From: an uncultured Flavobacteriaceae bacterium
GTDB taxonomy: Bacteria > Bacteroidota > Bacteroidia > Flavobacteriales > Flavobacteriaceae
DNA length: 64,000 nucleotides
Reading direction: 5' to 3'
NCBI GenBank assembly: GCA_964495935.1
Contig: CAZBXQ010000005.1
Location: 3,862-67,861 of the forward strand
Below, one piece after another: positions 23,393 through 40,778 of the stretch (positions are counted from its first letter, which is position 1; each line of letters opens with the position of its first letter). The translations under genes and the position numbers were made by a program. Under the pieces are notes generated by a model. The model had not been told where the DNA came from. It did not search any database and worked only from the letters and a program-made list of their open reading frames with translations.

Positions 23393-23416
23393 CGATTTCG
23401 GAACCATAAGCATAAA

Positions 23417-23712: not shown

Positions 23713-23774
23713 CTTGATTATCAGAGTGACCTCGACAGGATTCAAACCCACAACCTCCTGATCCGTAGTCAGGT
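23713..23774. repeat. att repeat (partial tRNA-Arg 3' copy plus 14 nt), distal end of island
   Basis: 59/62 nt identical to 43833-43894. The differences are three bases in the T-stem. Confidence 0.85.
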
Positions 23775-23918: not shown

Positions 23919-25130
23919 ATGACAAGTTATAATTTTACTTTAGCTAATAGACCTCGGAAGAATGGAGAGTACTCCATAGTTATCCAATTTGTAAAAGATC
24001 GAAAGAATACAAGTTTGTCGATTTCCAAATCTTGTAAAACGGAAGATTGGAGTTTTGAGACCTCCCGGGTAAAAAAAAGGAATAAGAACCATAAGATGCT
24101 CAATAAGTTTATAGAGAAATATGAGCAGATTATAGCAACTCTGATTGATGATTTTGAATTATCAGGGGAACCATACGGGTTGGATGACTTAATTATAGCC
24201 ATAAAAAACTATCAGGGCAAAAAATTACGGTTGTCCTATACCGAATTTGCAGAGAAACGAATTAGAACGTTAAAAAAAGCGGGGAAGGTGAGTAGTAGTT
24301 TAATAGAATATGACACCTTACGATCACTTCAAAAATTCTTCAAAAGGAATAAGATTAGCTTTAAAGAGGTTGATTATCGGAATCTTCAAAAATATGTGAC
24401 CTTTTTACGGACTAATGGAAATAAGAATTCTACCATAGGAATCCGACTGCGCACTACACGAGCCATTTTTAACGAGGCCATTAGAGAAGAAATTATACCT
24501 AAATCCTTTTATCCCTTCGATAAGCTTAAGGTTTCGAAATATAAAAGTAGTGATAAGAAGGAGTTCCTGACCATGGAAGAGATAGAAAAATTAAAGAAAT
24601 ACGAATGTAAAACCACCAAAGACCAGTTAGCCAAGGATATGTTTCTATTTAGCTATTATGCCCGAGGAATCAATTTTGTGGATCTGATTCTTTTAACCAA
24701 ATCTGCATTTTCAGGTAATCACATTAACTATTTGAGACATAAAACCAAGGCTCATGTTACCTTTAAAGTAAATGACTTTATTTTGGAGGTTATTAAAAGA
24801 TATAAAGCCCCGGCCAACTCTCCTTTTATCTTTGAATTTATTAGGAGAAATGACCCGGCTCCCGGCTATGTTAAAAATAAGACCCATAATTACCTCGGGA
24901 AATATATTAACCCTGGGCTAAAAACTATAATTGGAGAATGTGGAATCCAAAAACACATCACTTTTTATTGTGCTCGTCACTCTTTTGCTACGGCATTAAA
25001 GTTTAACAACATTTCGGTCGAAACAATCCGTGAAGCCTTGGGACACCGAGATATAAAATCAACGATGTCCTATCTGAATACCCTACCGGAAAAGAAACTG
25101 GATAATGTGATTGAAAAGATTATTGTTTGA
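23919..25130 (+). CDS. tyrosine-type site-specific recombinase/integrase
   Basis: 403 aa. Catalytic region ARHSFAT...LGHRDIKSTMSYL, with N-terminal arm-binding and SAM-like domains. Confidence 0.9.
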   Translation: MTSYNFTLANRPRKNGEYSIVIQFVKDRKNTSLSISKSCKTEDWSFETSRVKKRNKNHKMLNKFIEKYEQIIATLIDDFELSGEPYGLDDLIIAIKNYQGKKLRLSYTEFAEKRIRTLKKAGKVSSSLIEYDTLRSLQKFFKRNKISFKEVDYRNLQKYVTFLRTNGNKNSTIGIRLRTTRAIFNEAIREEIIPKSFYPFDKLKVSKYKSSDKKEFLTMEEIEKLKKYECKTTKDQLAKDMFLFSYYARGINFVDLILLTKSAFSGNHINYLRHKTKAHVTFKVNDFILEVIKRYKAPANSPFIFEFIRRNDPAPGYVKNKTHNYLGKYINPGLKTIIGECGIQKHITFYCARHSFATALKFNNISVETIREALGHRDIKSTMSYLNTLPEKKLDNVIEKIIV

Positions 25131-25162: not shown

Positions 25163-25609
25163 TCAACCACGCTCTGGAAGTGCGGGTTTGATTATGGGGA
25201 GGATATAATTAGCAAAAATATCATCTTGTAATTTCATCATAAGGATACCGCGGACCGTGGAGTGTGTAATAGCACTTATTGAGATTCCTAAATTGAGATC
25301 GATTTTGGTTTTTCCTTCATCCTTTGAATATAAATCTTTTAAGGGATGATAGCCGAAAATAAAGACAAAATCGAAACCTCGTTTGGCCTCTTCTTTATTT
25401 TTGGATTCGGTGATTAAAGAAACTGTATATTGCGAACGGATTAGTTCTTTTTCTAAGTTATAACTAAGTTTGGTTTCGAATTTTGTTTCGTACTTGGAAA
25501 TAAGAGTAGGATCGAATACTTCCGGAATATCTGTATTTTCAGATAAAGTTTTAAAGCTCAATATTTCGAGCTTTTCCGCACTGAATTTTGAAGATTGAGG
25601 ATCCTTCAT
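25163..25609 (-). CDS. hypothetical protein, possible SecB-like chaperone of a TAC module
   Basis: 148 aa. Third gene of a tight operon (3-nt gaps). Segment order resembles SecB (LEILSFKT..PEVF; ..YTVSLITE; FDFVFIFG; ..STVRGILMM..ILPIIKP), but similarity was judged by eye only. Confidence 0.35.
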   Translation of the reverse strand: MKDPQSSKFSAEKLEILSFKTLSENTDIPEVFDPTLISKYETKFETKLSYNLEKELIRSQYTVSLITESKNKEEAKRGFDFVFIFGYHPLKDLYSKDEGKTKIDLNLGISISAITHSTVRGILMMKLQDDIFANYILPIIKPALPERG

Positions 25610-25612
25610 CTC

Positions 25613-26005
25613 TTAAGCTACGGGTTTTAGTGGAAATGGTTTAAATTCCACATCATTGAAACTTTCAGAGGTCCTTTTTGTTTTTCGCTTACTCACTTTA
25701 AAAACAACTTCACTGTCTTGCCATTCTGTTTCTTGGATTGTACCTGTAGGAATTTCTATCAAAGTCTCTCCCAGTTCAGCTTCCAGTTTGGCAATGCTTT
25801 TTAAGGTAAGGTTGCCTTTTCCATTCAACCAACGGCTAATAGCCGAAGGCTTCTGTCCCATATTTTCAGCCAAATCCTTTTGAGACCAATCTTTTTTGGT
25901 CAATATGTCCTCAATGCGAACCATTAATGCCGCATATTTTTCCACAAAGATTTCTGTTTCTTTGGAAGTCTCATCCACTATTTGTTGAAGCAGTTTGTTA
26001 CGCAT
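25613..26005 (-). CDS. XRE-family HTH antitoxin-like protein with a C-terminal extension
   Basis: 130 aa. HTH WSQKDLAENMGQKPSAISRWLNGKGNLTLKSIAKLE, followed by a tail of about 40 aa. Confidence 0.75.
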   Translation of the reverse strand: MRNKLLQQIVDETSKETEIFVEKYAALMVRIEDILTKKDWSQKDLAENMGQKPSAISRWLNGKGNLTLKSIAKLEAELGETLIEIPTGTIQETEWQDSEVVFKVSKRKTKRTSESFNDVEFKPFPLKPVA

Positions 26006-26008
26006 AAT

Positions 26009-26527
26009 TCACAAAATTATTTCTGAAATATCATCTGACTCGTAATAATCCATAATGGATTTTTGATTATGATCCAGTTTTAAAATCCGACCTCTTAACG
26101 CTTCTAAAATCCGATCAGCAAATTCATTTGCTTCGTGAAATGCCATGCTTGTTTTTCCCCCTTGACTGGTTTGGCTTGTTTTTTCTCCACCATTAAACAA
26201 AATTACGCAGGAGTTAGAAAGCCGTAAACAGTATAACCGTAGTGGGAAGTTATATGGTATTCTTATTTCCCTTAAACCCGGTTTAGGAGGTAAGGCTTGA
26301 GCTTTTCTTTCAGGTCTAAAAAAGATTTCCCTCGCCCCATACTTATTCCCAATTTCATTTTGAAGTAATACGGCCAACTCCTGTACGTAAGATTTTAAGC
26401 TTGCATCCCTATAAAACTTATCAAAGAATCGTTCGGTCTCTGAAATCTCAGCATCCAAGTACCTGACGGTATAAAAAGAGCATTCCGTGCCTTCGTCATC
26501 AAATATTTCGAGAACAAAATTAGACAT
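26009..26527 (-). CDS. HigB/Gp49-like (RelE superfamily) toxin candidate, extended
   Basis: 172 aa. The core LRLYCLRLSNSCVILFNGGEKTSQ resembles the Gp49/HigB FRVLFF...KxxQ strand region. It is the first gene of the operon. Confidence 0.45.
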   Translation of the reverse strand: MSNFVLEIFDDEGTECSFYTVRYLDAEISETERFFDKFYRDASLKSYVQELAVLLQNEIGNKYGAREIFFRPERKAQALPPKPGLREIRIPYNFPLRLYCLRLSNSCVILFNGGEKTSQTSQGGKTSMAFHEANEFADRILEALRGRILKLDHNQKSIMDYYESDDISEIIL

Positions 26528-27037: not shown

Positions 27038-28153
27038 CTAATGATATTCCCAAACGCGTTGTCCCTCTTTATTGATTCTGAACCTATTGTCATTCATTGT
27101 TCTCACAAATGCTAATCCATTGGAAAAGTTATAAACTGTCTGGAATTCCAAAGGGAGAACAATAGCTCCCTTTTTATCTATAAATCCCATTTTTCCGTCT
27201 TTTTTCACTCCCACCAACCCTTCAGAAAACCCATAAAAGACTGGCCCAATATTTGTATTGGCAATAGAATCATATTTAAAAGGTATAACGACTCTTCCTG
27301 TTTCGTCTATAAACCCATATTTCCCGTCCTTGTATACAGCGGCTAATCCCTCGGAAAAAGGGTAAGCCCATTCATATATAAAAGGAATAACAATTCTTCC
27401 TAAATTATCTATAAAACCCCATTTATTTCCCTGTTTCACAGCAATTAACTCCTCCGAAAATTGCCTATTTTTAACTTCCTCAAATTCAAAAGGAATAACT
27501 ACTTCCCCCGTTTTATCTATGAACCCCCACTTATTAGAGTATTTATTCCTCATTGCCGCTAATCCACCTGAAAAATTCCTTTCTCCTATATCATTAAAGT
27601 TAGGATTATAAGTCTTAAATGGAATAACAATACTTCCGGCCTTGTCCAAGTATCCCCATTCCATACCTTTTTTAACGAGTACCAATCCTTCGGAAAAATG
27701 CTCCGTATAGTCATATTTTATAGGAATAACCACTTTTCCAGATTTATCTATAAACCCCCATTTATTATTCTTACTTACTGCTGCTAAGCCTTCAGAAAAA
27801 TAATTTACATCGTCATAAATATAAGGAACAATAATATTTCCTGCTTTATTTATATAACCATATTTCCCGTATCGTTTAACGCCAGCCAATCCCTCATTAA
27901 AAAGCTGAGCCCCATCAAATTTAAAAGGTACTATAACTTTTCCTCTCTCATCAATAAATCCAGCCTTATTACCTTTAAAAACAGGTGTCAAGGACAAATT
28001 TGGGTCAGTATTTATTCTCTTTTGAAAAACACTTATTGGGTAAATATTGTCATGCACGTATTTGACACCAAAAGACAGTAATCCAAAAATCAGAGCCACT
28101 ATACCCCAAATTATTTTCTTTTTACTTCCGGAAGAATTTCTTGTATTACTTAG
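27038..28153 (-). CDS. membrane-anchored WG-repeat (KWG) protein, with its start codon and first 4 codons severed by the IS30 insertion
   Basis: About 12 repeats of the form KWGFIDKxGxxVIPxxY after a TM anchor (IIWGIVALIFGLLSFGV). The frame runs straight into the IS end, and the original ATG can be reconstructed at 29260-29258. Confidence 0.8.
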   Translation of the reverse strand, partial: LSNTRNSSGSKKKIIWGIVALIFGLLSFGVKYVHDNIYPISVFQKRINTDPNLSLTPVFKGNKAGFIDERGKVIVPFKFDGAQLFNEGLAGVKRYGKYGYINKAGNIIVPYIYDDVNYFSEGLAAVSKNNKWGFIDKSGKVVIPIKYDYTEHFSEGLVLVKKGMEWGYLDKAGSIVIPFKTYNPNFNDIGERNFSGGLAAMRNKYSNKWGFIDKTGEVVIPFEFEEVKNRQFSEELIAVKQGNKWGFIDNLGRIVIPFIYEWAYPFSEGLAAVYKDGKYGFIDETGRVVIPFKYDSIANTNIGPVFYGFSEGLVGVKKDGKMGFIDKKGAIVLPLEFQTVYNFSNGLAFVRTMNDNRFRINKEGQRVWEYH

Positions 28154-29244
28154 ATTCAATTGTTAGTGCGAGTATTTAGGAAAATAGGAGACTCCCTTGG
28201 GCGGCCCCGGGGCCGCCCAAGGGAGTCTCCAGAAAAATTCAAATATTTGCATATGCACTACAAACATCTGAACTATGAGCAAAGATATACAATTGAGCAA
28301 ATGCTGCGGCAAGGGATTGCCAAAAATAAAATCGCCAGAACGATAGACGTTCACCAAAGCACACTCTACAGGGAGCTCAAACGAAATAGGCACAAACGAG
28401 GATATACCGCCGGGTATGCTCAGATGGTGGCCGATGAACGACAACAGGACACCCATCACAAGAAGTGCTTCACAGCGTCTATGAAACGCTATATCGTTCA
28501 AAAGCTGGAGACTCTTCAATGCTCTCCTGAGCAGATTGTGGGACTGGCCCAAAAAGAGAATATAGAAATGGTCAGCCATGAACGGATCTATCAGTTTATT
28601 TGGAACGACAAACGACAAGGTGGAGCACTGTATAAAAACCTTAGAAATGCCAGCAGGAAATACAGGAAACGGTACGGGAAAGAGGACGATAGAGGCCAAA
28701 TAAAAGATAAAGTGCCCATTGACGAACGTCCTGAGATCGTTGAAGACAGAAGCCGTATAGGGGACTTTGAGTCGGATTTAATAATTGGCAAGAACCATCA
28801 AGGAGCATTATTAACCATTGTCGATAGACGTTCAGGATTTGTGATCATCGACAAACTGGAAGGCAAGAATGCCCGTCAGGTGACTAAGAAAACCATTAAT
28901 GCTCTGGCTCCCTACAAAGAATGGCTACATACCATTACTAATGACAACGGCAAGGAATTCTCCGAGCACAAACAGATTGCTTCAAAGCTCAACTGTAAAG
29001 TCTTTTTTGCCCATCCCTACTCCTCTTGGGAAAGAGGCACAAATGAAAATACGAATGGCCTTATAAGACAATACTTCCCGAAAGGAACCAAATTCAACGA
29101 TATAAAAACGAGCCAAGTGGTTCAAGTGATGAAGAAATTGAACCATAGACCCCGAAAAAGATTGAACTTCAAAACCCCAATCGAAGAATTTTATCAATAC
29201 ATTTACAAAAATTCAGCCACTTGCACTTGATACTTGAATCCGCC
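28153..29244 (+). mobile_element. IS30-family insertion sequence
   Basis: About 1.09 kb. Imperfect terminal IRs (GATTCAATTGTTAGTGCGAGT / ACTTGCACTTGATACTTGAATC), a flanking TTA(G) duplication at 28150-28153 and 29245-29248, and a single transposase ORF. Confidence 0.85.
28253..29230 (+). CDS. IS30-family transposase
   Basis: The ATG at 28253 gives MHYKHLNYEQRYTIEQ...STLYRELKRN (HTH), followed by a DDE integrase core. The upstream part of ORF 28160 is translated palindrome. Confidence 0.9.
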   Translation: MHYKHLNYEQRYTIEQMLRQGIAKNKIARTIDVHQSTLYRELKRNRHKRGYTAGYAQMVADERQQDTHHKKCFTASMKRYIVQKLETLQCSPEQIVGLAQKENIEMVSHERIYQFIWNDKRQGGALYKNLRNASRKYRKRYGKEDDRGQIKDKVPIDERPEIVEDRSRIGDFESDLIIGKNHQGALLTIVDRRSGFVIIDKLEGKNARQVTKKTINALAPYKEWLHTITNDNGKEFSEHKQIASKLNCKVFFAHPYSSWERGTNENTNGLIRQYFPKGTKFNDIKTSQVVQVMKKLNHRPRKRLNFKTPIEEFYQYIYKNSATCT

Positions 29245-30152
29245 TTAGTTTTATCTTCATTCACTTTTGTCTTTTGATACGAAAAAACATTAACTTTGTG
29301 ATTCATTTTTGAGACCACTGTTTCTTCATCGTTATTTTTTCTAAACAGTGTATCAAAATATTTTAAAGCATTCCTGGCACTTAATCTTTTGTTTGGTTCC
29401 TTTTCTAAACCAGGTTTTAAAATGTTAAGCCAATTCTCCGGAATAGAGTCCAATTCCAAATCTCCCTGAACGATCTTCATCTGTATCTCGAAACCTGAAT
29501 CTTCATCTGTGTTGGAAATGATAGATCGACCCTTTATTAAAGTAGCAAAAGTAACAGTGAGAGAATATATATCAGTCGCTGATGTTACCCGTTTCGGGTC
29601 TCTTATCTGTTCAGGGCTCATATACAAGATCGTTCCTAAACCTTGTCCGGTCATTGTCATTGATATTTCGTGCCTTACTTTTGCAATTCCAAAATCAAGT
29701 ATCTTTATATCACCACTATCTTGTAGAAAAATATTGGAAGGCTTGATATCCCGGTGTATTATCCCTCTATTATGAGTATGCTCTAAGGCACTCAAAGCCT
29801 GTTTCCACCATCTCCCAAATTCGGCATCTGAAAAGCTTCGGCCTTTTGCCTGACTGTGACCGAGTGTTTCTCCCTCAAGGTATTCCATTATAATAAAAGG
29901 AAGTCCCCCATATTCTCCATAATCCAGTACTTGACGAATATTGGGATGGTCTAATTGAATCATCGTTTTTGCTTCTGTTTCAAAGCGGATCTTAACCTGT
30001 TCCTCTTCAACAAACTTAGTATGCATTATCTTGATGGCTGCCTTTCTACCGATAGTATTTTCTGCGTACCACACCTCCGCCATACCGCCTTTACCCAACA
30101 GGTATTTTAAATGATAACCGTGAAGTACTGTATCTCTCATTGTATCTCTCAT
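29169..30152 (-). CDS. Hanks-type Ser/Thr protein kinase (soluble), with an IS-encoded replacement C-terminus
   Basis: GKGGMAEV, AIKIM, HRDIKPSNIF, DFGIAK and SPEQ motifs. The last 24 codons (ADSSIKCKW...RLGF) are read from IS30 DNA. Confidence 0.9.
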   Translation of the reverse strand: MRDTMRDTVLHGYHLKYLLGKGGMAEVWYAENTIGRKAAIKIMHTKFVEEEQVKIRFETEAKTMIQLDHPNIRQVLDYGEYGGLPFIIMEYLEGETLGHSQAKGRSFSDAEFGRWWKQALSALEHTHNRGIIHRDIKPSNIFLQDSGDIKILDFGIAKVRHEISMTMTGQGLGTILYMSPEQIRDPKRVTSATDIYSLTVTFATLIKGRSIISNTDEDSGFEIQMKIVQGDLELDSIPENWLNILKPGLEKEPNKRLSARNALKYFDTLFRKNNDEETVVSKMNHKVNVFSYQKTKVNEDKTKADSSIKCKWLNFCKCIDKILRLGF

Positions 30153-30158
30153 TTGAGT

Positions 30159-31796
30159 TTATGAAGCGCAATCAATTTTATAATTACTCTCAAGATGTTG
30201 TCGAATACATGAAGCTCGTTTGCTGCTATACGGATGGCTTCTAAATAATTCATCAAAATTATTTGCTTTTTTTTCTTTTTGAGACATCCGTCTCCATATC
30301 TGGATGGCTTCACATGGATTAATATTTGCCTTAATCATCATATCTACTCCCAACAGATCTGCCAAAACCTCGTCTTTTTGATTAAAAGGAGTTGTAAAGA
30401 AACCTTCCATCTCCATAATTACATCTGCTAATTCTTGTCCAAACATATTTCCTGTTGCTTGCATTAGTCGTAATTTTCGAGAGATATGCCCCAATTCGTT
30501 ATGTGCTATTTCGTGGCTTATAACTGCGGCCAACTCCCGATCACTTTTTATAAAATCCATCATCCCGCTAAATATATAGATATAGCCTCCAACAGTAAAG
30601 GCGTTAATATCTTCACCCTCGATTTCATAAATTGAATAACTATACTCTGAACGAGGTTTTACATTGATCAACTTTTCCAAAAGGTGATTTAGTCTTATAG
30701 AAGATTTTACGAGGTTTTCGCTACTAAAGGCTTGATGAAACATTCTTCCCTGCTCCATTTCCTCCTCTACGGAAATTTTATTTATGGTAAAATCAATCAT
30801 CTTTTCACGTTGTAACGCGAGCATGTTAACCCATCCCATTTGGCTTTCCTTGTCATTTTCCAAACAAGAAGAATCGAATGTAATATCTTTATACTTTAAA
30901 TCTTTTCTGGGATTTACAAAGCCGACCTCCTGCTCAATAGGAGACTGCGGACCTACCTTATTTTTTGAAGAATTCAAAAAATAGATCATCACAAATAGGG
31001 CGATTAAAAGCAATCCTATTAATGTAAGTAAGAGGCTCCTGTTTTTTAATCTTTGCCTTTCTTTTACACAATGAATTAAGACAATCGTAATATTATCTAT
31101 ACCTCCTTTTTTATTGGCTGTCTCAATTAAATCTTGCCCCGTTTTTTCTAAAGATTCATCCGAAAGAACAATCTCCGTTATTCTATTATCAGGAATCATA
31201 TTTGTTAAGCCATCTGTACAAAGCAAAATATAATCTTCTTCTTGCAACTCCACAGCCTCCAGACAAATGTCTGACTCTACGTCTGGATTAATACCTATAG
31301 CCCGGGTTATTTCATTTTTTCTGGGATGATTTTTAGCCTCCTCTCTCGTAATTAGCTTGCTTTGTACCAATTCTTCCACAAAAGAATGATCTTGTGTAAG
31401 TTGCGAGATTTCCTTATTACGAATAAGATACAATCGGCTGTCCCCAACATGAGCATAAAATAATTTTTTATTTTTCACGATGGCGATAACCAAAGTTGTT
31501 CCCATGCCTTTGCGACCGATTTCCGACAAAGAATATTCATAAACCCTTTTATTAACGGTATCGATACAGTTCTTAAGTAGCCAATATTCCGGCTTTGTTT
31601 GATGAAACCTTATAAAATCTATTGCCGCTTCACAGGCCATCTTAGCGGCAACTTCTCCTTTAGCATGACCTCCCATTCCATCACATAATACGAAGGCAGT
31701 TCCATTTGAGAGTTCCACGGAGCTTGAGTAGTCCTCATTGATAGACCTCTTAAGGCCCCTATCAGTTTTCTGTATATAGATTATTCTATCTTTCAA
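30159..31796 (-). CDS. PP2C phosphatase - TM - M48 zinc metalloprotease fusion protein
   Basis: 545 aa. N-terminal PP2C (CDGMGGH, HVGDSR, CTDGL, GGIDNIT), a TM helix (LLLTLIGLLLIALFVMIYFL) and a C-terminal M48 domain (INAFTVGGYIY, HEIAHNELGH, EVLADLLG, SHPYSSKR). The apparent start codon is TTG. Confidence 0.85.
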   Translation of the reverse strand: MKDRIIYIQKTDRGLKRSINEDYSSSVELSNGTAFVLCDGMGGHAKGEVAAKMACEAAIDFIRFHQTKPEYWLLKNCIDTVNKRVYEYSLSEIGRKGMGTTLVIAIVKNKKLFYAHVGDSRLYLIRNKEISQLTQDHSFVEELVQSKLITREEAKNHPRKNEITRAIGINPDVESDICLEAVELQEEDYILLCTDGLTNMIPDNRITEIVLSDESLEKTGQDLIETANKKGGIDNITIVLIHCVKERQRLKNRSLLLTLIGLLLIALFVMIYFLNSSKNKVGPQSPIEQEVGFVNPRKDLKYKDITFDSSCLENDKESQMGWVNMLALQREKMIDFTINKISVEEEMEQGRMFHQAFSSENLVKSSIRLNHLLEKLINVKPRSEYSYSIYEIEGEDINAFTVGGYIYIFSGMMDFIKSDRELAAVISHEIAHNELGHISRKLRLMQATGNMFGQELADVIMEMEGFFTTPFNQKDEVLADLLGVDMMIKANINPCEAIQIWRRMSQKEKKANNFDELFRSHPYSSKRASCIRQHLESNYKIDCAS

Positions 31797-31827
31797 GACT
31801 TTATAGTTTACTTAAATCAAGTCCTTA

Positions 31828-34056
31828 TTAAATTATTCCCCATCGTCCGTTTTTGTATTCAAGTAAAATATCTTGTGTTTCTTCCGTATCGTCAGCTTCG
31901 GAGGTGCCTATGGATTGGGTCAGAATGATTTGATTATCATCTTTCCATTCAACATTTATTGTATAATCATAATTAATAGTAGATGGTAGAGTCTCTTTTA
32001 TAATCTTGTTATGTTTTTTAGAATAAACTTCAAATTTCTGACCCCTTGTAAGTTCTGCAAGAGCACTATAGAAATCGATAAATTTATTTCCATTAGGAGA
32101 AAATAATGGTTTCGTCCAAGTAATAACCATGTCGCCGGAGTTTTCATCAATCAAATAAAACCAGTAAAAATCTCCCACATCTCCCTCCTGCCCTCGTATC
32201 ATGTAACAATTTATGGATTTGTAATAGTTTTCGAATAGATATCTTAGATTCGAATAGGGATCGCCAATTTGTTTTGTTGAATCATCGAAATTATATCCGT
32301 TTCTAAATGTTATATCATGAGCTGCTTCTATTTTCAAGGCAAGATTTTTTTTATCTCTGGTAACCCAATGCTTATACCTACGAATAGCAAAAGCATCATA
32401 CTTCATTATATATTGGCTATCACTGTAATTTTCATCATTCATCAAACTCTGTTGCCAATTTCCCAACTCATCATCCGTTAAGGGCGGAACATCTTGAATA
32501 GCAAATTTCCTAACCTCGATTATTTCCTCTTTTTTATCAAATTTAAAATATAGATCTGACTTCAATTTATTCTCTTTATTTTCATTTTTTGAAACAAAAG
32601 AATATAAGGTTTCAAGGTAATATTCGTTGGATCTCAGTTTTTTTATCTCTAAGACCCTATTATGTCTTTTGCTAGTCCTTGACCAACTGTCGTGGTAAAG
32701 AGAATATAATTTTTTATAAGTAGGATTTTTTAAACCCCAATAATTTTCTATCTGATTAGATAACAGGTAAGTGATTCTGCTCCAATCCTTTTCATCTTCG
32801 GCTTTTAAAAAGGCCCTGATTTTCTCTATATTCGAAAGTGAGACCAAGTCTTTGAAATCACCAGATTCTTTTATTGCCTTTTGATAAGCTCTACTACTTT
32901 CATCCAAATCTTTTCCCGCAACATCTTTTTCCATTATGGGTTCTACTTGCTCAACCGAGGTAGTTTTATTTTCTTCTTTTGAAGACGATAAATCAAAAAA
33001 TAACACACCTATCAATATAAGTATCACTACTATTAAGGATACACCAATGAATCTTCCAATTCCCTTTTCCTTATTTATCTTATTCTCCTCTTCGTAGTTT
33101 TTATATCTCTTATCAATAATATTGATATCAATATCGCTGGAAGGCTCCTTTCCACTATTCTTTGAGTTTCTCGTTTTATCAGTGGGGGCTGTTATGATGG
33201 TTTTATCTCCTGCTAAATTTATAGTCTTGTCTGTAGTTAAGTCAGCCTTCTTTTCGGGGATAAAACTTGCTTGATCGGTAGTAAGGAATCTGTTCAAATC
33301 TTTTAACCGTTCATCGACATTCTTAGCCGTGGCTTCTTGAATTACTTGATCCCATTTAGTAGAAGTCAGAGGCAGAGGTTCTTTGACTATCTTAACTTGG
33401 AGATCAAAAGTAGATAATGTATTCATATCATAGGGCCTTTTGCCACTAACCATTTCCCAAAGGATAACACCAAGGCTATAAACATCAGAAGCTTGGGTTA
33501 GTCCCTTTAAACTCCTTACTTGCTCCGGGCTCATATACATGGGGGTACCCATAACCATTTTAGTTACAGTTTCTGTATAGTCGCTATTCTGCATGGAATT
33601 GTCTTTAGATATTCCAAAATCGGTAAGCTTTAACCGCCCATCATTATTGAAAATAAAATTAGACGGTTTCAAATCCCTATGTATTAATCCTTTCGAATGG
33701 ATGTATCTAACGGCTTCAACCATTTGAGTGAGATTTGACCCTATCTCATTATCATTCAATTTCCGTTTTAATAATGCATCTTTAAGGGTTTTTCCATCAA
33801 GATATTCCATTATAAAGAATGCTTTATCTTGATTTACAGATATATCCATTACGGTAACCACGTTGGGATGGTTAATTTGGGCCATTTTTTTAGCTTCCTC
33901 TATAAATCGGCCTCGAATATTTTCATTGTTTACAAACTCTTTGTTCAGTACCTTTACGGCTACCTTAGTTCCCAAAATCTTGTGCTTCGCAAGATATACG
34001 GTTGCCATCCCACCTTTCCCCAGCTCTTTTATAGCCCTATAATTATGAAAATCCAC
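31828..34056 (-). CDS. membrane Ser/Thr protein kinase with a large extracytoplasmic C-terminal domain of unknown family
   Basis: 742 aa. GKGGMATV, AVKVL, HRDLKPSNF, DFGISK and SPEQ motifs, a TM helix (FIGVSLIVVILILIGVLFF), then about 370 aa. Confidence 0.9.
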   Translation of the reverse strand: MDFHNYRAIKELGKGGMATVYLAKHKILGTKVAVKVLNKEFVNNENIRGRFIEEAKKMAQINHPNVVTVMDISVNQDKAFFIMEYLDGKTLKDALLKRKLNDNEIGSNLTQMVEAVRYIHSKGLIHRDLKPSNFIFNNDGRLKLTDFGISKDNSMQNSDYTETVTKMVMGTPMYMSPEQVRSLKGLTQASDVYSLGVILWEMVSGKRPYDMNTLSTFDLQVKIVKEPLPLTSTKWDQVIQEATAKNVDERLKDLNRFLTTDQASFIPEKKADLTTDKTINLAGDKTIITAPTDKTRNSKNSGKEPSSDIDINIIDKRYKNYEEENKINKEKGIGRFIGVSLIVVILILIGVLFFDLSSSKEENKTTSVEQVEPIMEKDVAGKDLDESSRAYQKAIKESGDFKDLVSLSNIEKIRAFLKAEDEKDWSRITYLLSNQIENYWGLKNPTYKKLYSLYHDSWSRTSKRHNRVLEIKKLRSNEYYLETLYSFVSKNENKENKLKSDLYFKFDKKEEIIEVRKFAIQDVPPLTDDELGNWQQSLMNDENYSDSQYIMKYDAFAIRRYKHWVTRDKKNLALKIEAAHDITFRNGYNFDDSTKQIGDPYSNLRYLFENYYKSINCYMIRGQEGDVGDFYWFYLIDENSGDMVITWTKPLFSPNGNKFIDFYSALAELTRGQKFEVYSKKHNKIIKETLPSTINYDYTINVEWKDDNQIILTQSIGTSEADDTEETQDILLEYKNGRWGII

Positions 34057-34083
34057 AGTCAGCTTTATTATGGTTTAATATCA

Positions 34084-36381
34084 TTATCGAGTCATTTTTA
34101 TTAAGAAGTGATAGGTAATGAATATTAATAGTACTCCTAAACCCATCAGCATAAGAAAGTCCAATAAAAATGTATAGCTTAAATTATTGAAAATATCATC
34201 GTAAATTTCATGGTATTGAGCCTTTAAAAATTCAACTGGACCGATATTTTCTTTCAATTGCGTGTAAGCAAACTCGTCATTTTGTATTTTAATAGGTAAG
34301 CCTTCCTCATTTATTTGAATTCTTCTGATATTATTTCTAATACTTTTTTGGATATGAGCCAATCCCTCAACTCCCCACCTGGAAAAAGTAAAATAGCTTA
34401 AAAACTCTACAACACCACTCTGAATTTTAGTGATCACTCCGGAAAGCATCAATTGAGGGATTAGGATTATAGGGATTAATGATAAAACTTTATCTGAAGT
34501 TTTCATGGCAGCGCTAACTAATAGCCCCATAATAGCCGCGATCAAATTGATTAACCACAGCCATGAAAATACTGCCAAAAAATCTCTTAGGGGGTTTCTT
34601 GTTTCCATATATGCAATGGATATGATGCCGGTAAAGAGTATACTTTGCACCCCTCCCAATAAGAATAAAGATATAAGTTTTGAGGACAAATAACTGCCTA
34701 TATATAGGTTATATAATCGCTCCCTAATAAAAATAACCCTTTCTTTTACAACTTCTCTCGCAGCATTGTTAACTCCAAACCAAATAGAAGATACCACCAT
34801 CATAAATAAGACTCCCATATCAAGGTCGTTAAAAATAAAAACGATTAGAAGTGCAATGACCGGGGCTTGTCCTATTACTAACCCTGTGTTCATCTTGTCA
34901 TTCTCCTTAATTTTCAGGTTGCGTTTTGTTAACCAAAAGAATTGCCTAAAACCATTGACCTGAGAGGTTCTCTGTGCATATCTCTTTTTTCTCTCGCCAA
35001 GAATTTGACCTTGCCTTTCCATTGTCCACTGTTGAGATTGTCCTCCTGTTAATTCATTATAGACTTCAATAGCCGAGTTTACCCCGAAATATTGTAGATA
35101 ATTTTTTGTACTTCCCTTATAGGCTAAATTACCTTTCTCGGTAAGGAAAATTACCTCGTCCATAAATTGCAGGTCTTCCGGCTTATGGGTAACCATAATT
35201 ATAGTAGTACCAGAGTCCACCAAATCTTTTAATATGGACATAAAGCCTTCGATGGATTGTGGATCTAAAGGTGAGGTGGGTTCATCCAAAAGAAGTAATA
35301 GAGGTTCAGAAAGTAATTCTATGGCGATGCAAACTCGCTTTCTCTGCCCTCCACTAATATCTTGATTGAGGTTATTTCTAACAGATTTTATTTTAAGTTT
35401 ACTAAGTAAAAATTCTATCCTGCCTAATATTTTGGATTTGGATAAATGCTCGAGACGCAACATTGCGGCATAATACAAAGATTGATATACTGTTAATTGT
35501 GGATGTACTATGTCGTCTTGTGGCACATAACCAATGTTACTTTTGAAATAATCGTAGTATTCGTTTAATTCTAAGTCGAATAGGGAAACTCTTCCTGTAG
35601 AATTAGGAACCATCCCATTCATTATTTTCAATAATGTTGATTTTCCACATCCCGAAGGACCCATTATGGCGGTCAAGGTTTTGGGAAACACCTCTAATGA
35701 AAGTGGTTTTATAACAGTTTTGCGTTCATAATTCTTAGATACTCTTTCTAAACGAACTACCGTTCGATCATCTAATTTCCTGTACTCTCCAAATACGTTC
35801 ATCACGAAGTTTCCGATCAGAAATTCGGAAGTAATATCAAGAGTAACCCTTTGTATTCTTTCTCCTTTATAAAAGGTTCCGTTTGTTGAATTTAGATCTT
35901 CAAGTTTGAAATGCTCTTTATCAACTTGTTTTAACCGAGCATGTTTGCGACTGATACTTGGTTCTTTAATTACAATATCGCAGGACTCATCTCTGCCAAT
36001 CAATAGGGCTTTGTACTTGGAACTAGGCTCTGGATCCGTCTTCTTTGAATCCGGTTTTATGCCTATGAGTAATTTTGATCGGGCATCGGAAAAAAGAATT
36101 TCGTCCCCGTTTCCAAGTAAAACAGATTTCTCCTTATCGATTTTTAGCCCATTAACAAAAGTGCCATTGCTACTTCCCAAATCTTTAAGCTCCAAACCTT
36201 TTTTACTCAACTGGATAGAGGCATGCCTACGCGATATTCCGGGGGATTCAAATATAATTTCATTGCCCTTTTTTCTACCTATATAAAGTTGGTCGCCGGG
36301 AAGGATTTTAACTTCTCTAATCACCTCATCATTCTCAAAAAAAGAAAGTGTAGTGCTATTTTGTAAAACTGTACCAGACAT
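34084..36381 (-). CDS. FHA-FHA-ABC transporter (ATPase plus ABC-2 type permease in one polypeptide)
   Basis: Two FHA cores (IGRKKG..SRRHASI..SSNGTFVNG; IGRDES..SRKHARL..STNGTFYKG). Walker A GPSGCGKST, signature ISGGQRKR, Walker B LLLLDEPTS, and 6 C-terminal TM helices. Start taken as the ATG one codon inside the TTG of the track ORF. Confidence 0.9.
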   Translation of the reverse strand: MSGTVLQNSTTLSFFENDEVIREVKILPGDQLYIGRKKGNEIIFESPGISRRHASIQLSKKGLELKDLGSSNGTFVNGLKIDKEKSVLLGNGDEILFSDARSKLLIGIKPDSKKTDPEPSSKYKALLIGRDESCDIVIKEPSISRKHARLKQVDKEHFKLEDLNSTNGTFYKGERIQRVTLDITSEFLIGNFVMNVFGEYRKLDDRTVVRLERVSKNYERKTVIKPLSLEVFPKTLTAIMGPSGCGKSTLLKIMNGMVPNSTGRVSLFDLELNEYYDYFKSNIGYVPQDDIVHPQLTVYQSLYYAAMLRLEHLSKSKILGRIEFLLSKLKIKSVRNNLNQDISGGQRKRVCIAIELLSEPLLLLLDEPTSPLDPQSIEGFMSILKDLVDSGTTIIMVTHKPEDLQFMDEVIFLTEKGNLAYKGSTKNYLQYFGVNSAIEVYNELTGGQSQQWTMERQGQILGERKKRYAQRTSQVNGFRQFFWLTKRNLKIKENDKMNTGLVIGQAPVIALLIVFIFNDLDMGVLFMMVVSSIWFGVNNAAREVVKERVIFIRERLYNLYIGSYLSSKLISLFLLGGVQSILFTGIISIAYMETRNPLRDFLAVFSWLWLINLIAAIMGLLVSAAMKTSDKVLSLIPIILIPQLMLSGVITKIQSGVVEFLSYFTFSRWGVEGLAHIQKSIRNNIRRIQINEEGLPIKIQNDEFAYTQLKENIGPVEFLKAQYHEIYDDIFNNLSYTFLLDFLMLMGLGVLLIFITYHFLIKMTR

Positions 36382-36745
36382 CAAATTGGTTATTTTACCT
36401 CCTGTATATTGACAACATACGTACCTCGTCAGAAGTATTTTTACCTTAAAAAGGATTCAAAACAGAGTGTTATTTAACGAGTTTTATGAAACGACTGTTA
36501 ATATACATAAAAATAAAGGATTATATCAATCCTTTTTGAAAACTGAAATACAGTAATCTTTGGAGAATTATGACGAGAGGCCTAATGTTTAAAAATGGAA
36601 TTACAGTAAATGTATTATCGCCTAGAATTATTAGTAACAGCTATCCAATTCATTAAGAGAGGCCAGAACAAATCCTCAAACCTTCATCAAAGCAAAGATC
36701 TTATGGGAAGCCTATTTGTAGTCCTTATCTTAATGAGACAATACA

Positions 36746-37261
36746 TCAGCAGTTTACAATTGCCTCTTTATCAATTGCAATTCCCCTTTTCTCCATAAAA
36801 TTTAATAAATCATTTAGATTTGTTACATCGAGGTAATCCAAAAAGAAGCGTTCAAGATTAATTCCGTCACTATCAGAATAGGTTTCGAAATCCGGTTTTT
36901 CATTGGTAAAGTCTTCAATACAATACTTAAATTTATGTACAACATTATCCTCATAAATTTTCACGCCTGAAACCGTAATATTGTCCAATTTATATTTCTT
37001 TTTCCCTTTACATTCAACTTCTTGAAAACCGAGTTTATGTAAGTGCTTGGGCTCGGTTAGAATTATACTAATATCTTGAAAACCACAATAGATACTTTCT
37101 TTATAGCGAAGCAAATACAAGCTGAGCCCTTCAGCCGTCTTAAAGGTTTTAAAAGTTTCTATTCGGCCGAAACCCTTATCTCTAAGAACATTTGAATCTG
37201 TAGATAAATTACCTTTATATTTTACATAGTCCCCTTTTTCGTAGTAATGCTCTCTCGTCAT
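36746..37261 (-). CDS. hypothetical protein
   Basis: 171-aa ORF with no recognisable motif. AT-rich island cargo. Confidence 0.5.
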   Translation of the reverse strand: MTREHYYEKGDYVKYKGNLSTDSNVLRDKGFGRIETFKTFKTAEGLSLYLLRYKESIYCGFQDISIILTEPKHLHKLGFQEVECKGKKKYKLDNITVSGVKIYEDNVVHKFKYCIEDFTNEKPDFETYSDSDGINLERFFLDYLDVTNLNDLLNFMEKRGIAIDKEAIVNC

Positions 37262-37419: not shown

Positions 37420-37848
37420 ATGAATAAAACAATAAATAAGTTAAGAGTAGAAGTTTTTCAATTCTTAAATAAGAATTTTAACAAAAATGTTTCGTTTAAG
37501 GACTTGGTTCGCGCATTAGAATTGGACTATTTTACTATTAAATTAGACAATGGGGATAAAATGACTTTGAAGTCCTATACACATGAGCCAATTCCTGTTT
37601 ATTATCAGAATCTAATTGATGCATTAAAGTATTTGTGCAGTAATGATTTAATCGAAATTGATAACAAAAATGGTTTTTTTAAGATAAGTAAGAGAGGAGT
37701 TTTAATATCTGAATATGGACAAATAGGAATATACTTATACACTTTTAATAATTTTGTTTCCCCTATTTCTTCGGTCATAAAATTGATATACTATTTATTA
37801 TTCATATTGTATTTAATTCTTGAGCTTTTCATTTTATTTATGTTTTAA
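37420..37848 (+). CDS. hypothetical protein with a C-terminal membrane anchor
   Basis: 142 aa. Soluble N-terminal part and a strongly hydrophobic tail (LIYYLLFILYLILELFILFMF). Confidence 0.5.
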   Translation: MNKTINKLRVEVFQFLNKNFNKNVSFKDLVRALELDYFTIKLDNGDKMTLKSYTHEPIPVYYQNLIDALKYLCSNDLIEIDNKNGFFKISKRGVLISEYGQIGIYLYTFNNFVSPISSVIKLIYYLLFILYLILELFILFMF

Positions 37849-38047: not shown

Positions 38048-39049
38048 TTATCGTCCAAAATCGAATCCTCGATTCCGGTTCCTTTCATGCTGTCGAAGCT
38101 TTTGTTCTCTTTCCTTTTTGTATTGTTGGTTTTTAGATTGTAGTGTTTCTCTCTCCTTGTAGTACACCTTAAACCGGCCACCCTCTTCTAACCCCATAAA
38201 GTAGGTACGGGCTCTTCTGGATTTTTTATCGTTTTCGGGAGCTGTAATATTTTCTGATAGAACTTCCTTTCCGCGATAGAGGTCATTGACCTGGTCATCT
38301 GTAAAACCAATGCTATGCAGGGTTTGAATAATTTCTTGTTGCCGGGCTTCCAATTGCCTGTTGTACTCGATTTTCTCACGGACCAAGCGTTCGATCTCTT
38401 CGGGAGTTGCCTTTTTATATTCTTTTTTGTATTCAAACTTGTCTTCTAATCTTCGCTGGTAAAGGAACATCCGGTCAAAAGCTTGCTCAGTCCCATTATA
38501 AAAACCGACCCTTGAAAAACCGCCTTTTACTGGCCCCTTTTTCGTGTTTTTATGATTGGTCTGCGGCGATATTTTTCTTCTGCCATCAGCTGTTTTACGG
38601 GAGACGATGACATGTACATGGACATTGCCGCTTTCCTCTTCCTGTCGGTGATGATGAACCTTGGCATAATACATAATGTCCTTGGCGTGTAATCCTTTAT
38701 TAAAAGATGCCGCATATTGCTCCATAAAACCTTGACGTATGAACTCTTTGAGCTTCTTCGACTGTTCTTGCGGAGTATTTCCTAAATGACGAAGCTCATC
38801 GGCTGATGGGCTTAAGGTCAGCAAATAGAACTTGGCATCTTTTTTACAAAGCTTGCGCTTGTTGTTATCCAATTTATCAATTACCGTAGTGGGGTTGACT
38901 TGATTTTCCCGATGAGAAAAGAAAGGTTCCATAGGTTTCCCGTTTTTTATATTCTCCCAATCTTCATGTTCCAGGTAACGAACAAGCCCTCCTGAACTAC
39001 CCTGGTTGGCCGTTCTCCCGGAACCACCGCCTTGTATCTTGGCATGCAT
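38048..39049 (-). CDS. relaxase/mobilization nuclease (Bacteroidota MobB-like)
   Basis: 333 aa. N-terminal ...GGLVRYLEHED and His-cluster NVHVHVIVSR. Located downstream of a small Mob accessory gene. Confidence 0.75.
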   Translation of the reverse strand: MHAKIQGGGSGRTANQGSSGGLVRYLEHEDWENIKNGKPMEPFFSHRENQVNPTTVIDKLDNNKRKLCKKDAKFYLLTLSPSADELRHLGNTPQEQSKKLKEFIRQGFMEQYAASFNKGLHAKDIMYYAKVHHHRQEEESGNVHVHVIVSRKTADGRRKISPQTNHKNTKKGPVKGGFSRVGFYNGTEQAFDRMFLYQRRLEDKFEYKKEYKKATPEEIERLVREKIEYNRQLEARQQEIIQTLHSIGFTDDQVNDLYRGKEVLSENITAPENDKKSRRARTYFMGLEEGGRFKVYYKERETLQSKNQQYKKEREQKLRQHERNRNRGFDFGR

Positions 39050-39053
39050 AACT

Positions 39054-39563
39054 TTATTTTTTAAAATAAATCCCCCTTTTGCTTTTGACTTGCTCGATGT
39101 CCGTTTTTAAATCTTCAAAAAGATTGATTAGTCGTTTTTCGTGGCTACCCAACTGTTTTTTAAAATTCTTTTGAATAATGTCGATAGCCTTATTGTGGTA
39201 TTGGAGGTTTTGTTCCGAAGTTAAGAGCGGTTTCAAATCCTGTTTTTTAGCGACATTTTCAATGTGATTTTTGAGTCTTTCCTCGGTCTTAATAATAGCT
39301 TCCATGGCCGGCCGGATGAATTCTTTTTCTTGCGTTTTAACAAACCCAATATTATAGTCGATCCGTTTTTTTATTCGGGCTAACTCCGTTTTCGGAGCAT
39401 TATCCGTTTTGGGGTTGATGCCATTATTTTCCAGAAAATTCAGGGTGATAGATATAAAGTCCTTCTTAAGGATTTTATAGGTCTCACAATACTCGGTTAG
39501 CCGCTCGTTATCTGCTATTGACACGGCAATGGTAGTCGTTCGTTTTTGCTTTTTATTTTTCAT
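39054..39563 (-). CDS. mobilization accessory protein (MobA-like)
   Basis: 169-aa basic helical protein ending 4 nt upstream of the relaxase gene. Assigned by context. Confidence 0.5.
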   Translation of the reverse strand: MKNKKQKRTTTIAVSIADNERLTEYCETYKILKKDFISITLNFLENNGINPKTDNAPKTELARIKKRIDYNIGFVKTQEKEFIRPAMEAIIKTEERLKNHIENVAKKQDLKPLLTSEQNLQYHNKAIDIIQKNFKKQLGSHEKRLINLFEDLKTDIEQVKSKRGIYFKK

Positions 39564-39716
39564 GGTTCCCCTCTTTAAATATAGTAAGTTGATTCGTTAG
39601 TTTGTTTACAGTCAGCGTGTTATATGATATTCATAAATTTCGGATATAGTCAAAATATATTTTACAGGATTTTTAAATTTATTAAACGGTTGATAATCAG
39701 ATAATAGCCCCGCAGG

Positions 39717-39754
39717 GCAAGACTGAACGACGGCTCTGCCTCGTTCCGTCTTGC
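39717..39754. other. candidate oriT hairpin
   Basis: GCAAGACTGAACGA-CGGCTCTGCC-TCGTTCCGTCTTGC (14-nt arms, 1 mismatch) in a locally GC-rich stretch upstream of the mob genes. Confidence 0.4.
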
Positions 39755-39884
39755 TCCTGACGGACATCTTATCACTTCGTGATTCCCGGAGCCTTAAAGC
39801 GACCGGGGTTTGTACTTTATAATCTTCTAAAATGATCATCCGTTCCTTGCCGTTGAAAGGATAGAAAAGTCATTTTCTAATCCT

Positions 39885-40778
39885 TTATTTCTTATTCAAT
39901 CCGATCAAAAAATCGTTGAAATCTTTGTATCCGGTATAATGATATCGAGCATCCAGAATTTTGTCCCCAAAGACGTTCAAGAGCATTTTCGTAGCTGCTT
40001 CTCCTGCATCATCGTTATCCAGACAAGTGGTGATGGAAGTGTATGCATGGAGGTCTCCCTGTTGATCTTTAAGCAACCCATTGATTAGGGATAACGAGTT
40101 AAGGATCATAAAATCATAGGCCTCTTCCCGACTCGGGTAGAGGGTAAGAAACGCGATAAAATCAGCCCATCCTTCAAATATCATTAAGGCTTCCTTTTTA
40201 TGGCGGATCGTGGTTATAGCTTTCTTGCCAAAACAACGCTTATCCCGGCTGTTCCGCAGTTCAAATCCACCCAGATCGTTTTTGAATCCGATGGAGAAAT
40301 ACTCATTCTCATTATTGGCATACCGATAATGAATTTCCCGACAATATTTTTGTGCCATCCGCAAACTGAGTTTTCGTTTTTGCTTGATGTAACTGACCAA
40401 GGCAGGATGACGAATATTCCCTTCAGAAGTAATTTTATAGGTCTTATAAACTCTTCTTCTTTTTGCAGTAAATCTCCTTTTTACAGAAGACGGCTGGTGA
40501 AAAGAAAAACAATTAAGTTTTTCTTCCATTAGCTGGAGTGCCTCTTTAAAATCTACCTTATAGTAAGTCATCACAAAGTCGATCACGTTGCCGCCTTCTC
40601 CGATTCCGAAATCGTAATAAATGTTCCGGTTTTTATCGACTTTAAAGGAAGGGGTCTTCTCTTTCCTAAACGGACTTAAATACCAGGCTTCAAAACTATT
40701 TTCTTTGGCCACCGGAACGCCTAATTGATTTAAAATACCGACGATGCTAACATATTCTTTGGCTTGTTTGGAATTCAT
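39885..40778 (-). CDS. Toprim domain DNA primase-like protein
   Basis: 297 aa. Degenerate CHC2-like N-terminus and Toprim motifs (EGWADF, CLDNDDAG). Confidence 0.78.
   Translation of the reverse strand: MNSKQAKEYVSIVGILNQLGVPVAKENSFEAWYLSPFRKEKTPSFKVDKNRNIYYDFGIGEGGNVIDFVMTYYKVDFKEALQLMEEKLNCFSFHQPSSVKRRFTAKRRRVYKTYKITSEGNIRHPALVSYIKQKRKLSLRMAQKYCREIHYRYANNENEYFSIGFKNDLGGFELRNSRDKRCFGKKAITTIRHKKEALMIFEGWADFIAFLTLYPSREEAYDFMILNSLSLINGLLKDQQGDLHAYTSITTCLDNDDAGEAATKMLLNVFGDKILDARYHYTGYKDFNDFLIGLNKK

Follow-up and report, generated by a model that had tools for sequence, protein, structure and literature searches.

Within a 64,000-nucleotide stretch of DNA from an uncultured Flavobacteriaceae bacterium (contig CAZBXQ010000005.1, positions 3,862 to 67,861; the whole stretch is called the window below), five neighboring genes encode an FHA-FHA-ABC exporter, a membrane-bound Hanks-type serine/threonine protein kinase (STPK1), a PP2C phosphatase fused to an M48 metalloprotease, a second, soluble kinase (STPK2), and a membrane-anchored WG-repeat protein. 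This cluster is probably a condensed form, spread by horizontal transfer, of an operon that is conserved in Bacteroidota and puts an ABC-2 (ABCG-like) exporter under the control of phosphothreonine. By analogy with Rv1747 and PknF of Mycobacterium tuberculosis, the encoded system is likely a phosphothreonine-gated exporter with PP2C as its reset, and the writer/eraser/reader logic that an earlier note on this DNA had drawn from the same analogy is a reasonable description of it.

Gene content and domain architecture of the cluster

All five genes lie on the minus strand in the co-directional order described in that note, with gaps of 27, 31, and 6 nt between successive genes. The exporter gene (34084 to 36384, minus strand) is a 766-amino-acid open reading frame (ORF) that starts at a TTG, with an ATG at 36381. 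Pfam places two FHA domains (36091 to 36285 and 35797 to 36012; 1.8e-39), an ABC ATPase domain (ABC_tran, 35272 to 35709; 3e-29), and an ABC-2 membrane domain (ABC2_membrane, 34348 to 34947; 2.3e-18) in this single polypeptide, the last with about six transmembrane (TM) helices by hydropathy. Walker A, Q-loop, SGGQ, Walker B, and H-loop motifs are present in the ATPase, and the phosphothreonine-binding residues GR, SxxH, and NGT are found in FHA1 and FHA2 alike. One Rv1747 FHA domain (6cah) is among the PDB matches, at 1.8e-7.

STPK1 (31828 to 34056, minus strand, 742 amino acids) is encoded 27 nt downstream of the exporter on the same strand, so that a Hanks kinase directly adjoins it. Its kinase domain (33247 to 34041; Pkinase, 7.5e-56) is followed by a TM helix (residues 336 to 354, 32995 to 33051), an NTF2/SnoaL-like ectodomain (32497 to 32889), and an orphan C-terminal extracytoplasmic region (31831 to 32496). 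STPK2 now occupies an ORF of 327 amino acids (29169 to 30152, minus strand; Pkinase, 1e-47), in which the hydropathy scan found no TM helix. Both kinases have the G-loop, the VAxK lysine, HRDxKxxN, DFG, and SPE.

The third gene (30159 to 31796, minus strand) encodes a PP2C-TM-M48 fusion of 545 amino acids, assigned from Pfam (PP2C_2 and PP2C, 7.5e-18 and 1.4e-14; Peptidase_M48, 1e-21), NCBIfam, and PDB matches. A TM helix (residues 255 to 273, 30978 to 31034) separates a PP2C domain predicted to be cytoplasmic (31068 to 31769) from an M48 domain predicted to be periplasmic (30201 to 30785). The PP2C half scores above the NCBIfam Stp1/IreP cutoff (276 versus 230 bits), matches Stp1 in the PDB (2pk0, 4.5e-47), and carries RxxNED, DGMGG, GDSR, TDG, and DNIT motifs. 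The M48 half has HEIAH followed downstream by the DEVLAD glutamate, and matches M48 peptidase 3c37 (7.8e-13) and BepA (about 1e-5). Four cysteines in the extracytoplasmic part are invariant in the alignment of PP2C-M48 proteins, which fits a periplasmic, oxidizing compartment for the protease. The last gene (27038 to 28159, minus strand) encodes a 373-amino-acid protein with one TM helix (residues 16 to 34) and seven WG_beta_rep units (3.6e-92).

Pfam and hydropathy agree with the domain assignments and membrane topology that had been read from the letters alone, and a check for degenerate catalytic residues found the motifs complete and the catalytic positions invariant across the PP2C-M48 alignment. 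Scans of the cluster for sigma-70 promoters and terminators gave counts equal to the shuffled expectation, with a tool that does not cover Bacteroidota promoters, and a tRNA was the sole Rfam match.

A syntenic operon is common in Bacteroidota

Relatives of the cluster were collected by a metagenome profile scan built from the PP2C-M48 alignment, which picked M48 subfamily motifs and returned 80 loci whose domains were mapped by jackhmmer. M48 is present in these loci by construction of the scan, and the test is the co-occurrence of other genes, counted in the 42 loci of at least 10 kb. FHA-ABC and PP2C genes were each found in 39 of the 42, kinase genes in 38, and LEA_2 genes in 40. M48, FHA-ABC, kinase, and PP2C occurred together in 38/42, so the homologs do co-occur outside this genome, and the module genes were all on one strand in 41/42.

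The usual form of the operon, defined from loci L008, L091 to L094, and L100 to L176, begins with an FHA protein of about 201 amino acids, a second FHA protein (about 520 to 532), PP2C (about 430 to 600), a kinase (about 270 to 281), and an FHA-TM-M48 protein (about 415). It continues with sometimes an M48 protein (about 265), then LEA_2 (about 290), FHA-FHA-ABC (about 760), and a membrane kinase (about 650 to 780). LEA_2 adjoins the FHA-ABC gene and is usually just upstream of it. Named genomes have the parts in unfused form. A Chitinophaga metagenome-assembled genome (L008) has FHA, PP2C, kinase, FHA, FHA-M48, LEA_2, FHA-ABC, three kinases, and a WG-containing protein, and loci from Winogradskyella (L009) and Allomuricauda (L010, L015) have M48, FHA-ABC, LEA_2, an extracytoplasmic function sigma factor, a WG protein, Sel1 proteins, a kinase, and PP2C.

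On the long contigs L091 to L094 the operon sits beside ordinary genes (proS and Nramp in L091), and other relatives have housekeeping neighbors (rnpA in L096, rpsF-rpsR-rplI in L095). A backbone gene of the island type described below was present in just 1 of the 80 metagenome loci. A parallel scan of genome contigs with the FHA-ABC alignment settled on generic Walker A and signature patterns and was swamped by unrelated ABC ATPases, leaving about 12 of 80 loci informative. In a further locus, from the gammaproteobacterium Alteromonas sp. (L012, about 1890 to 12825), FHA-ABC lies beside PP2C, a kinase, and more FHA proteins, which indicates that the association is not confined to Bacteroidota.

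The earlier note had allowed that the cluster might turn out to be a common core-genome locus with a function already assigned. It does belong to a common, mostly chromosomal Bacteroidota locus, and no assigned function was found for it. Literature searches returned no description of this operon, of the PP2C-M48 fusion, or of any characterized system with this composition, in agreement with that note, and a 2025 survey of bacterial PP2C domain arrangements makes no mention of PP2C-TM-M48.

The window copy combines a recurring reduced core with accessory genes

PP2C-M48 fusions are rare, with 13 full-length clusters among 5.8 billion proteins at 33 to 53% identity to the window protein, while FHA-FHA-ABC proteins are common (more than 7,000 at E of ≤1e-20, about 40% identity, full length). 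The reduced trio of fusion, FHA-ABC, and kinase recurs in at least eight other loci at 41 to 53% identity. FHA-ABC and membrane kinase genes surround the fusion in L004, L007, and the P0009 contig, the trio lies beside rnpA and a tail-specific protease gene in L096, and on the short contigs L088 and L089 a kinase gene is directly upstream of the fusion. The adjacency of kinase and exporter genes is shared by L004, L007, L096, and most loci with the usual operon.

In a quick neighbor-joining tree, the exporters of the window, L004, L096, and L095 form a group whose sister is made up of the usual-operon exporters. Between STPK1 and the kinases encoded next to FHA-ABC in L004 and L096, kinase-domain identity is 57 to 60%. 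The M48 domain is 36 to 42% identical to FHA-M48 and to stand-alone M48 proteins, and with HEIAHNELGH and FNQKDE it belongs to the HEI[NA]HNELGH...FNQKDE subfamily, here again next to FHA-FHA-ABC. In L100, L129, and L144 a short PP2C gene is directly followed by an M48 gene, an arrangement from which the fusion could plausibly have arisen.

STPK2 and the WG protein have a different distribution. Both are absent from the closest relatives (L088, L089, L004, and L096), and the WG protein was found in 0 of the 80 metagenome loci. WG relatives occur in two Flavobacteriaceae module loci, L015 (9e-72) and L009 (3e-76), and in L009 the repeats are fused to a kinase through a TM helix. Protein P0269 combines a kinase-like domain, an NTF2-like domain, and WG repeats. 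STPK2 was considered as an ortholog of the conserved kinase of about 270 to 281 amino acids and rejected, with a median identity of 31% and best matches to membrane kinases at about 40%. The low identity of STPK2 to that kinase and the lack of a WG protein in the 80 metagenome loci mark both proteins as accessory, and only L009 and L015, both from Flavobacteriaceae, offer parallels. Comparison of the loci points to a conserved core of four components: FHA-ABC, membrane kinase, PP2C, and M48. The five genes had been proposed to form a self-contained unit; that proposal does not hold against this core of four, two accessory proteins, and a usual operon with three more components.

An IS30 element separates STPK2 from the WG gene

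An IS30-family insertion sequence (IS) at about 28160 to 29244 (plus strand, ends placed within 2 nt) contains a transposase ORF (28160 to 29230, plus strand) with HTH_38 and rve domains by Pfam. Its insertion point is the overlap of the STPK2 stop and the WG start, with a possible TT target duplication. The flanking sequences rebuild to GAAGATAAAACTAATTGAATCTAAG, in which STPK2 ends in ...EDKTN-TGA at 303 amino acids and the TGA overlaps the TTG start of the WG gene (AATTGA), bearing out the suggestion that this last junction originally overlapped. The extent first given for the second kinase, 30152 to 29245, is right for this pre-insertion gene (30152 to about 29245, minus strand, as reconstructed from the IS junctions) and wrong for the present ORF, which runs into the IS as far as 29169 and gains a 24-amino-acid tail read from the IS end. 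The WG gene is cut off by the IS from upstream transcription and from translational coupling. Three metagenome contigs with identical proteins (L001 to L003) all break at the IS point, as expected for a repeat sequence.

Two further features of the element were observed. A perfect 44-bp GC-rich palindrome lies inside the IS left end (28187 to 28230), upstream of the likely transposase ATG, and may be a read-through terminator or regulatory hairpin. In addition, the 18-nt IS right terminus (29227 to 29244, TTGATACTTGAATCCGCC) is repeated identically at 23417 to 23434, about 280 nt outside the left attachment repeat of the island and beside GC-rich hairpin-like sequence at about 23250 to 23400. 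The 16-nt core of this terminus has 2 exact matches versus 0.08 expected, and the second copy could be a solo IS end, a miniature inverted-repeat transposable element, or a preferred target.

The STPK1 ectodomain is predicted to contain an NTF2-like fold

The roughly 370 extracytoplasmic residues of STPK1 had been described as unassigned, which stands for the last 200 or so but not for a domain of about 130 residues preceding them. An exhaustive HMMER search of 1.8 billion representatives returned 163 relatives, nearly all of which cover ectodomain residues of about 40 to 145, some with weak SnoaL_2/DUF4440 Pfam signals. In the AlphaFold model the predicted local distance difference test score (pLDDT) exceeds 90 at ectodomain residues 20 to 150, and Foldseek matched the model to limonene epoxide hydrolase, ketosteroid isomerase, and SnoaL, with TM-scores on the target of up to 0.80. 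Together with the HMMER relatives, the high pLDDT and the Foldseek matches assign STPK1 residues of about 390 to 520 to an NTF2/SnoaL-like cone, at the level of a predicted model. The C-terminal 200 or so amino acids have pLDDT values below 50 to 60 and a single database relative, P0392. The NTF2-like fold commonly binds small hydrophobic ligands.

The relatives carry this domain C-terminal to DnaJ-TM, trypsin-like protease, GYF, kinase-like, or caspase-STAND-WD40 modules. The segment corresponding to STPK1 residues of about 410 to 515 recurs at the C termini of P0298, P0269, P0256, and P0272, among hosts that include caspase-nSTAND1-WD40 proteins, kinase-like proteins with WG repeats, DnaJ-TM proteins, and trypsin-like proteases. 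This distribution suggests that the NTF2-like domain may be a widely reused ligand-sensing module.

A proposed mechanism for phosphothreonine-gated export

In the proposed mechanism, STPK1 would use its NTF2-like ectodomain to sense a cue from the periplasm or envelope, probably a small hydrophobic ligand, and would then autophosphorylate threonines of its juxtamembrane segment. This segment is threonine rich (TTDKTINL, GDKTIIT, and PTDKT), and similar (D/E)KT(I/L/V) motifs occur in the kinases of L004, L007, and L009. The exporter FHA domains would dock on these STPK1 phosphothreonines, or on ones that the kinases place elsewhere, and docking would switch on or cluster the transporter as shown for Rv1747 and PknF. 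As a guess from the general behavior of ABC-2/ABCG exporters, the exported substrate may be an envelope lipid or glycoconjugate. The cytoplasmic PP2C would remove the phospho-marks and reset the switch, and the M48 domain, held at the same membrane site, could cleave a periplasmic or outer membrane target linked to export. STPK2 and the WG protein, once translationally coupled, may have formed a split receptor kinase that served as a second input until IS30 uncoupled them; the kinase-TM-WG protein of L009 and the composition of P0269 support this reading of the pair.

Exporters of the usual operon carry a conserved T-T-[DN]-I-[IL]-[ED]-K-F motif in a long linker between the FHA domains. FHA domains prefer a hydrophobic residue at pT+3, and the motif fits this preference. 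In the window exporter this linker is about 25 amino acids (GIKPDSKKTDPEPSSKYKALL), and relatives in its clade also have short linkers without the motif.

Several points weigh against a phosphothreonine-gated exporter that works in its condensed form. The conserved TTxI(I/L)(E/D)KF motif is not in the window linker, and since that linker is also short, Rv1747-style self-docking appears unlikely here. We infer docking on the phosphorylated kinase instead, because the linker motif is lost and the STPK1 juxtamembrane segment carries DKT motifs. Enrichment of such motifs is modest: [DE][KE]T[IVL] was observed 12 times after the kinase domains of module kinases versus 2.3 expected, but its carriers are 9 of 69 kinases, and the highest count among 300 shuffles was likewise 9. 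The substrate and the direction of regulation are predictions for every member of the family. LEA_2 and the two stand-alone FHA proteins of about 200 and 530 amino acids, which nearly every copy of the usual operon contains, are both missing: the window cluster has no LEA_2, and among the Pfam-scanned island ORFs of at least 130 amino acids none but the exporter has an FHA domain. The condensed version may therefore work differently or depend on chromosomal copies, and the IS may have shut off the WG gene. The STPK1 orphan region, the WG protein, and the two ORFs upstream of the cluster were tried as LEA_2 substitutes and rejected, with hhalign probabilities of ≤0.5% against the LEA_2 profile.

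The loss of LEA_2 and of two FHA adaptors, together with IS30 at the last junction, would also fit decaying or silent cargo, in which the island took up a partial copy of the chromosomal operon that is without its partners, was hit by an IS, and has no function of its own. The cluster was moreover found in a single population, where three runs from the same series gave the same protein sequences. However, its four large ORFs (766, 742, 545, and 303 amino acids) are uninterrupted with every catalytic motif intact, and the trio with the fusion recurs in the other loci described above, one of them a housekeeping neighborhood (L096). This recurrence points to a viable architecture under selection, and we consider decay quite unlikely.

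The cluster is cargo of a mobile island

As the earlier note had recognized, the operon is cargo of a tRNA-integrated integrative mobilizable element. An imperfect 61-nt direct repeat, 36 nt of it exact, bounds a 20.1-kb element. The left copy (23713 to 23773) is a partial copy of a tRNA-Arg 3' end, and the right copy (43833 to 43893) overlaps the 3' part of the tRNA-Arg(ACG) gene (43846 to 43920, minus strand). The assignment follows from these tRNA-end repeats, a tyrosine integrase (23919 to 25130, plus strand; Arm-DNA-bind_5, Phage_int_SAM_5, and Phage_integrase), mobilization and replication genes, and a deviant GC content (about 0.35 inside versus about 0.42 in the flanks). The backbone block (38048 to 42773, minus strand) contains genes for DUF5712 (38048 to 39049), assumed here to be the relaxase, a CHC2/Toprim primase (39885 to 40778), DUF5906 (41027 to 42268), and HTH_17 (42378 to 42773), as well as a 169-amino-acid ORF. 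The flanks hold housekeeping genes (obg, adk, purK, and 2-oxoacid dehydrogenase). Obg is 76% identical to its counterparts in Mesonia spp., which places this marine-type genome in an undescribed genus of the Flavobacteriaceae. Between the E2 and E1 genes of the 2-oxoacid dehydrogenase complex lies a PD-(D/E)XK nuclease gene (19930 to 20373, plus strand; PDDEXK_3, 3.8e-39).

Between the cluster and the mobilization genes are two ORFs, of 171 amino acids (36746 to 37261, minus strand) and of 142 amino acids with a C-terminal TM helix (37420 to 37848, plus strand), that had no Pfam, NCBIfam, or PADLOC match. As small unassigned genes just upstream of the operon, they could hint at a bacteriocin or toxin export and immunity module, in which the pump would export or expel a peptide that M48 processes or destroys. 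In other phyla, bacteriocin immunity draws on ABC-2 pumps and membrane metalloproteases. Searches of the island, though, yielded no precursor peptide, no modification enzyme, and no toxin domain, the usual operon is also without such a gene, and the two ORFs have no homolog in any related locus, all of which makes a bacteriocin module very improbable.

The island setting also raises the question of defense. Next to the operon, three minus-strand genes (25163 to 26527) match PDC-M64, a candidate defense system in PADLOC (1.6e-38, 7.5e-31, and 7.7e-18). The earlier note had placed a toxin-antitoxin module here; three small genes are indeed present, the middle one of the Xre helix-turn-helix type, but no toxin domain was identified in them. 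If the operon were defense cargo, acting against phages or in conflict between bacteria, infection or an attack on the envelope would trip its kinases, with abortive infection or exclusion then left to the exporter and protease. Consistent with this, AbiEii toxin genes, each paired with a neighboring gene of about 170 to 200 amino acids, lie within or beside three independent PP2C-M48 loci (L004, 6798 to 8257; L005, 1048 to 2255; and the P0009 contig, 5597 to 6762). Both kinases score well on the PADLOC PD-T4-6 and mad6 models, the NTF2-like domain also occurs in a caspase-STAND-WD40 protein, and the KKP module of prophages gives phage defense (PMC11341870). The 171-amino-acid ORF was tried as an AbiEi-like partner on account of its equal length to those in L005 and the P0009 contig, and was rejected when phmmer matched it only to L001 and L002.

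The PADLOC PD-T4-6, mad6, and mad3 matches, however, cover only generic kinase or ABC ATPase domains, and the NCBIfam MAD6 model (antiphage_MADS6) gives 145 and 148 bits versus a cutoff of 460. No MADS, methyltransferase, or restriction enzyme match was found among the other scanned island ORFs. Defense systems are usually patchy by comparison with the homologous operon, which is tightly syntenic and whose relatives lie in housekeeping neighborhoods (L096, L091, and L095), with the island-type backbone gene confined to the single metagenome locus mentioned above. A scan of a viral contig collection returned no relative, and a plasmid search returned no PP2C-M48 fusion. Overall, a defense role for the operon is not supported, and we regard it as unlikely; the phage, competition, and self-protection roles suggested at first are at odds with the synteny and neighborhoods of the relatives. 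A variant that we rate as rather improbable is a portable, minimal envelope-surveillance device, whose kinases, fitted with interchangeable NTF2-like or WG sensors, would register an attack on the envelope by phages or competitors and, with FHA docking as the link, fire the exporter and the tethered M48 in a protective or abortive response. If it were true, the widespread operon would be a previously unrecognized class of phospho-signaling-based envelope immunity.

Comparison with known systems

To our knowledge, studies of FHA-gated ABC export have been limited to a single organism, M. tuberculosis, and to its Rv1747, whose substrate is still debated. The condensed derivative described here and its relatives would extend the same gating logic to a highly syntenic operon of eight to nine genes, common among Bacteroidota from sea, fresh water, and soil. 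The naturally reduced, mobile version of four to five genes offers a practical starting point for heterologous reconstitution, and the PP2C-TM-M48 protein and its FHA-TM-M48 counterpart physically tie cytoplasmic phospho-signaling to a predicted periplasmic protease.

Like the window exporter, Rv1747 joins two FHA domains at its N terminus to an ABC ATPase and an ABC-2 domain in a single chain, and its operon also contains a neighboring Hanks kinase gene. Phosphorylation positively regulates Rv1747 in M. tuberculosis, its FHA domains bind phosphothreonines, and it is phosphorylated at Thr-150 and Thr-208 (PMC3138270), both within the unstructured linker that joins its two FHA domains (PMC8339232). 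In contrast to that long, disordered acceptor linker, the window linker of about 25 amino acids has no conserved phospho-acceptor motif. The Rv1747 operon consists of two genes, without a dedicated PP2C, M48, second kinase, or WG protein, whereas the window copy is island borne and has all of these. FHA-ABC proteins of actinobacterial plasmids are about 28 to 31% identical to the window exporter.

The usual Bacteroidota operon is closer, with the same M48 subfamily, FHA-FHA-ABC proteins that are about 40% identical, a membrane kinase directly downstream, and a TM-anchored PP2C. The window differs from it in that M48 is fused to PP2C rather than to FHA, gene order is rearranged, a WG gene is added, and the whole is on a mobile element. 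The actinobacterial cell wall signaling cluster (fhaA-fhaB-pstP-rodA-pbpA-pknA-pknB) likewise unites, in one operon, Hanks kinases, readers with FHA domains, and a PP2C that is anchored by a TM helix and has an extracytoplasmic tail. The FHA protein of about 520 to 530 amino acids in the usual operon has a C-terminal FHA domain (residues 453 to 516 of 524 in L008), presumably as FhaA does. Here, RodA and a penicillin-binding protein are absent, the effector is an ABC-2 pump with M48, and the window itself is without FhaA-like and FhaB-like genes.

Other systems resemble the cluster in part. The KKP module of Pf prophages (PMC11341870) likewise places two Ser/Thr kinases and a phosphatase on a mobile element, a likeness by composition, but it is a cytoplasmic, toxin-antitoxin-like defense without FHA, ABC, or M48. 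BepA and LoiP share the HExxH-plus-glutamate zinc site and the soluble periplasmic M48 fold; the window M48 lacks a TPR domain and is TM tethered to a cytoplasmic PP2C, and its assignment as their equivalog was rejected, at 61.9 bits versus NCBIfam cutoffs of 570 (BepA) and 365 (LoiP). The PpkA/PppA/Fha1 pathway of type VI secretion was rejected as well, with no type VI secretion domain among the scanned island genes; the PP2C resembles PppA (6jkv, 1.6e-30) only as a generic PP2C. Set against these systems, an ABC pump that is gated by FHA domains and paired with a cognate kinase and PP2C is already known in principle, and what is new is the composition, the protease tethered to phospho-signaling domains, the breadth of the operon in Bacteroidota, and the condensed mobile version.

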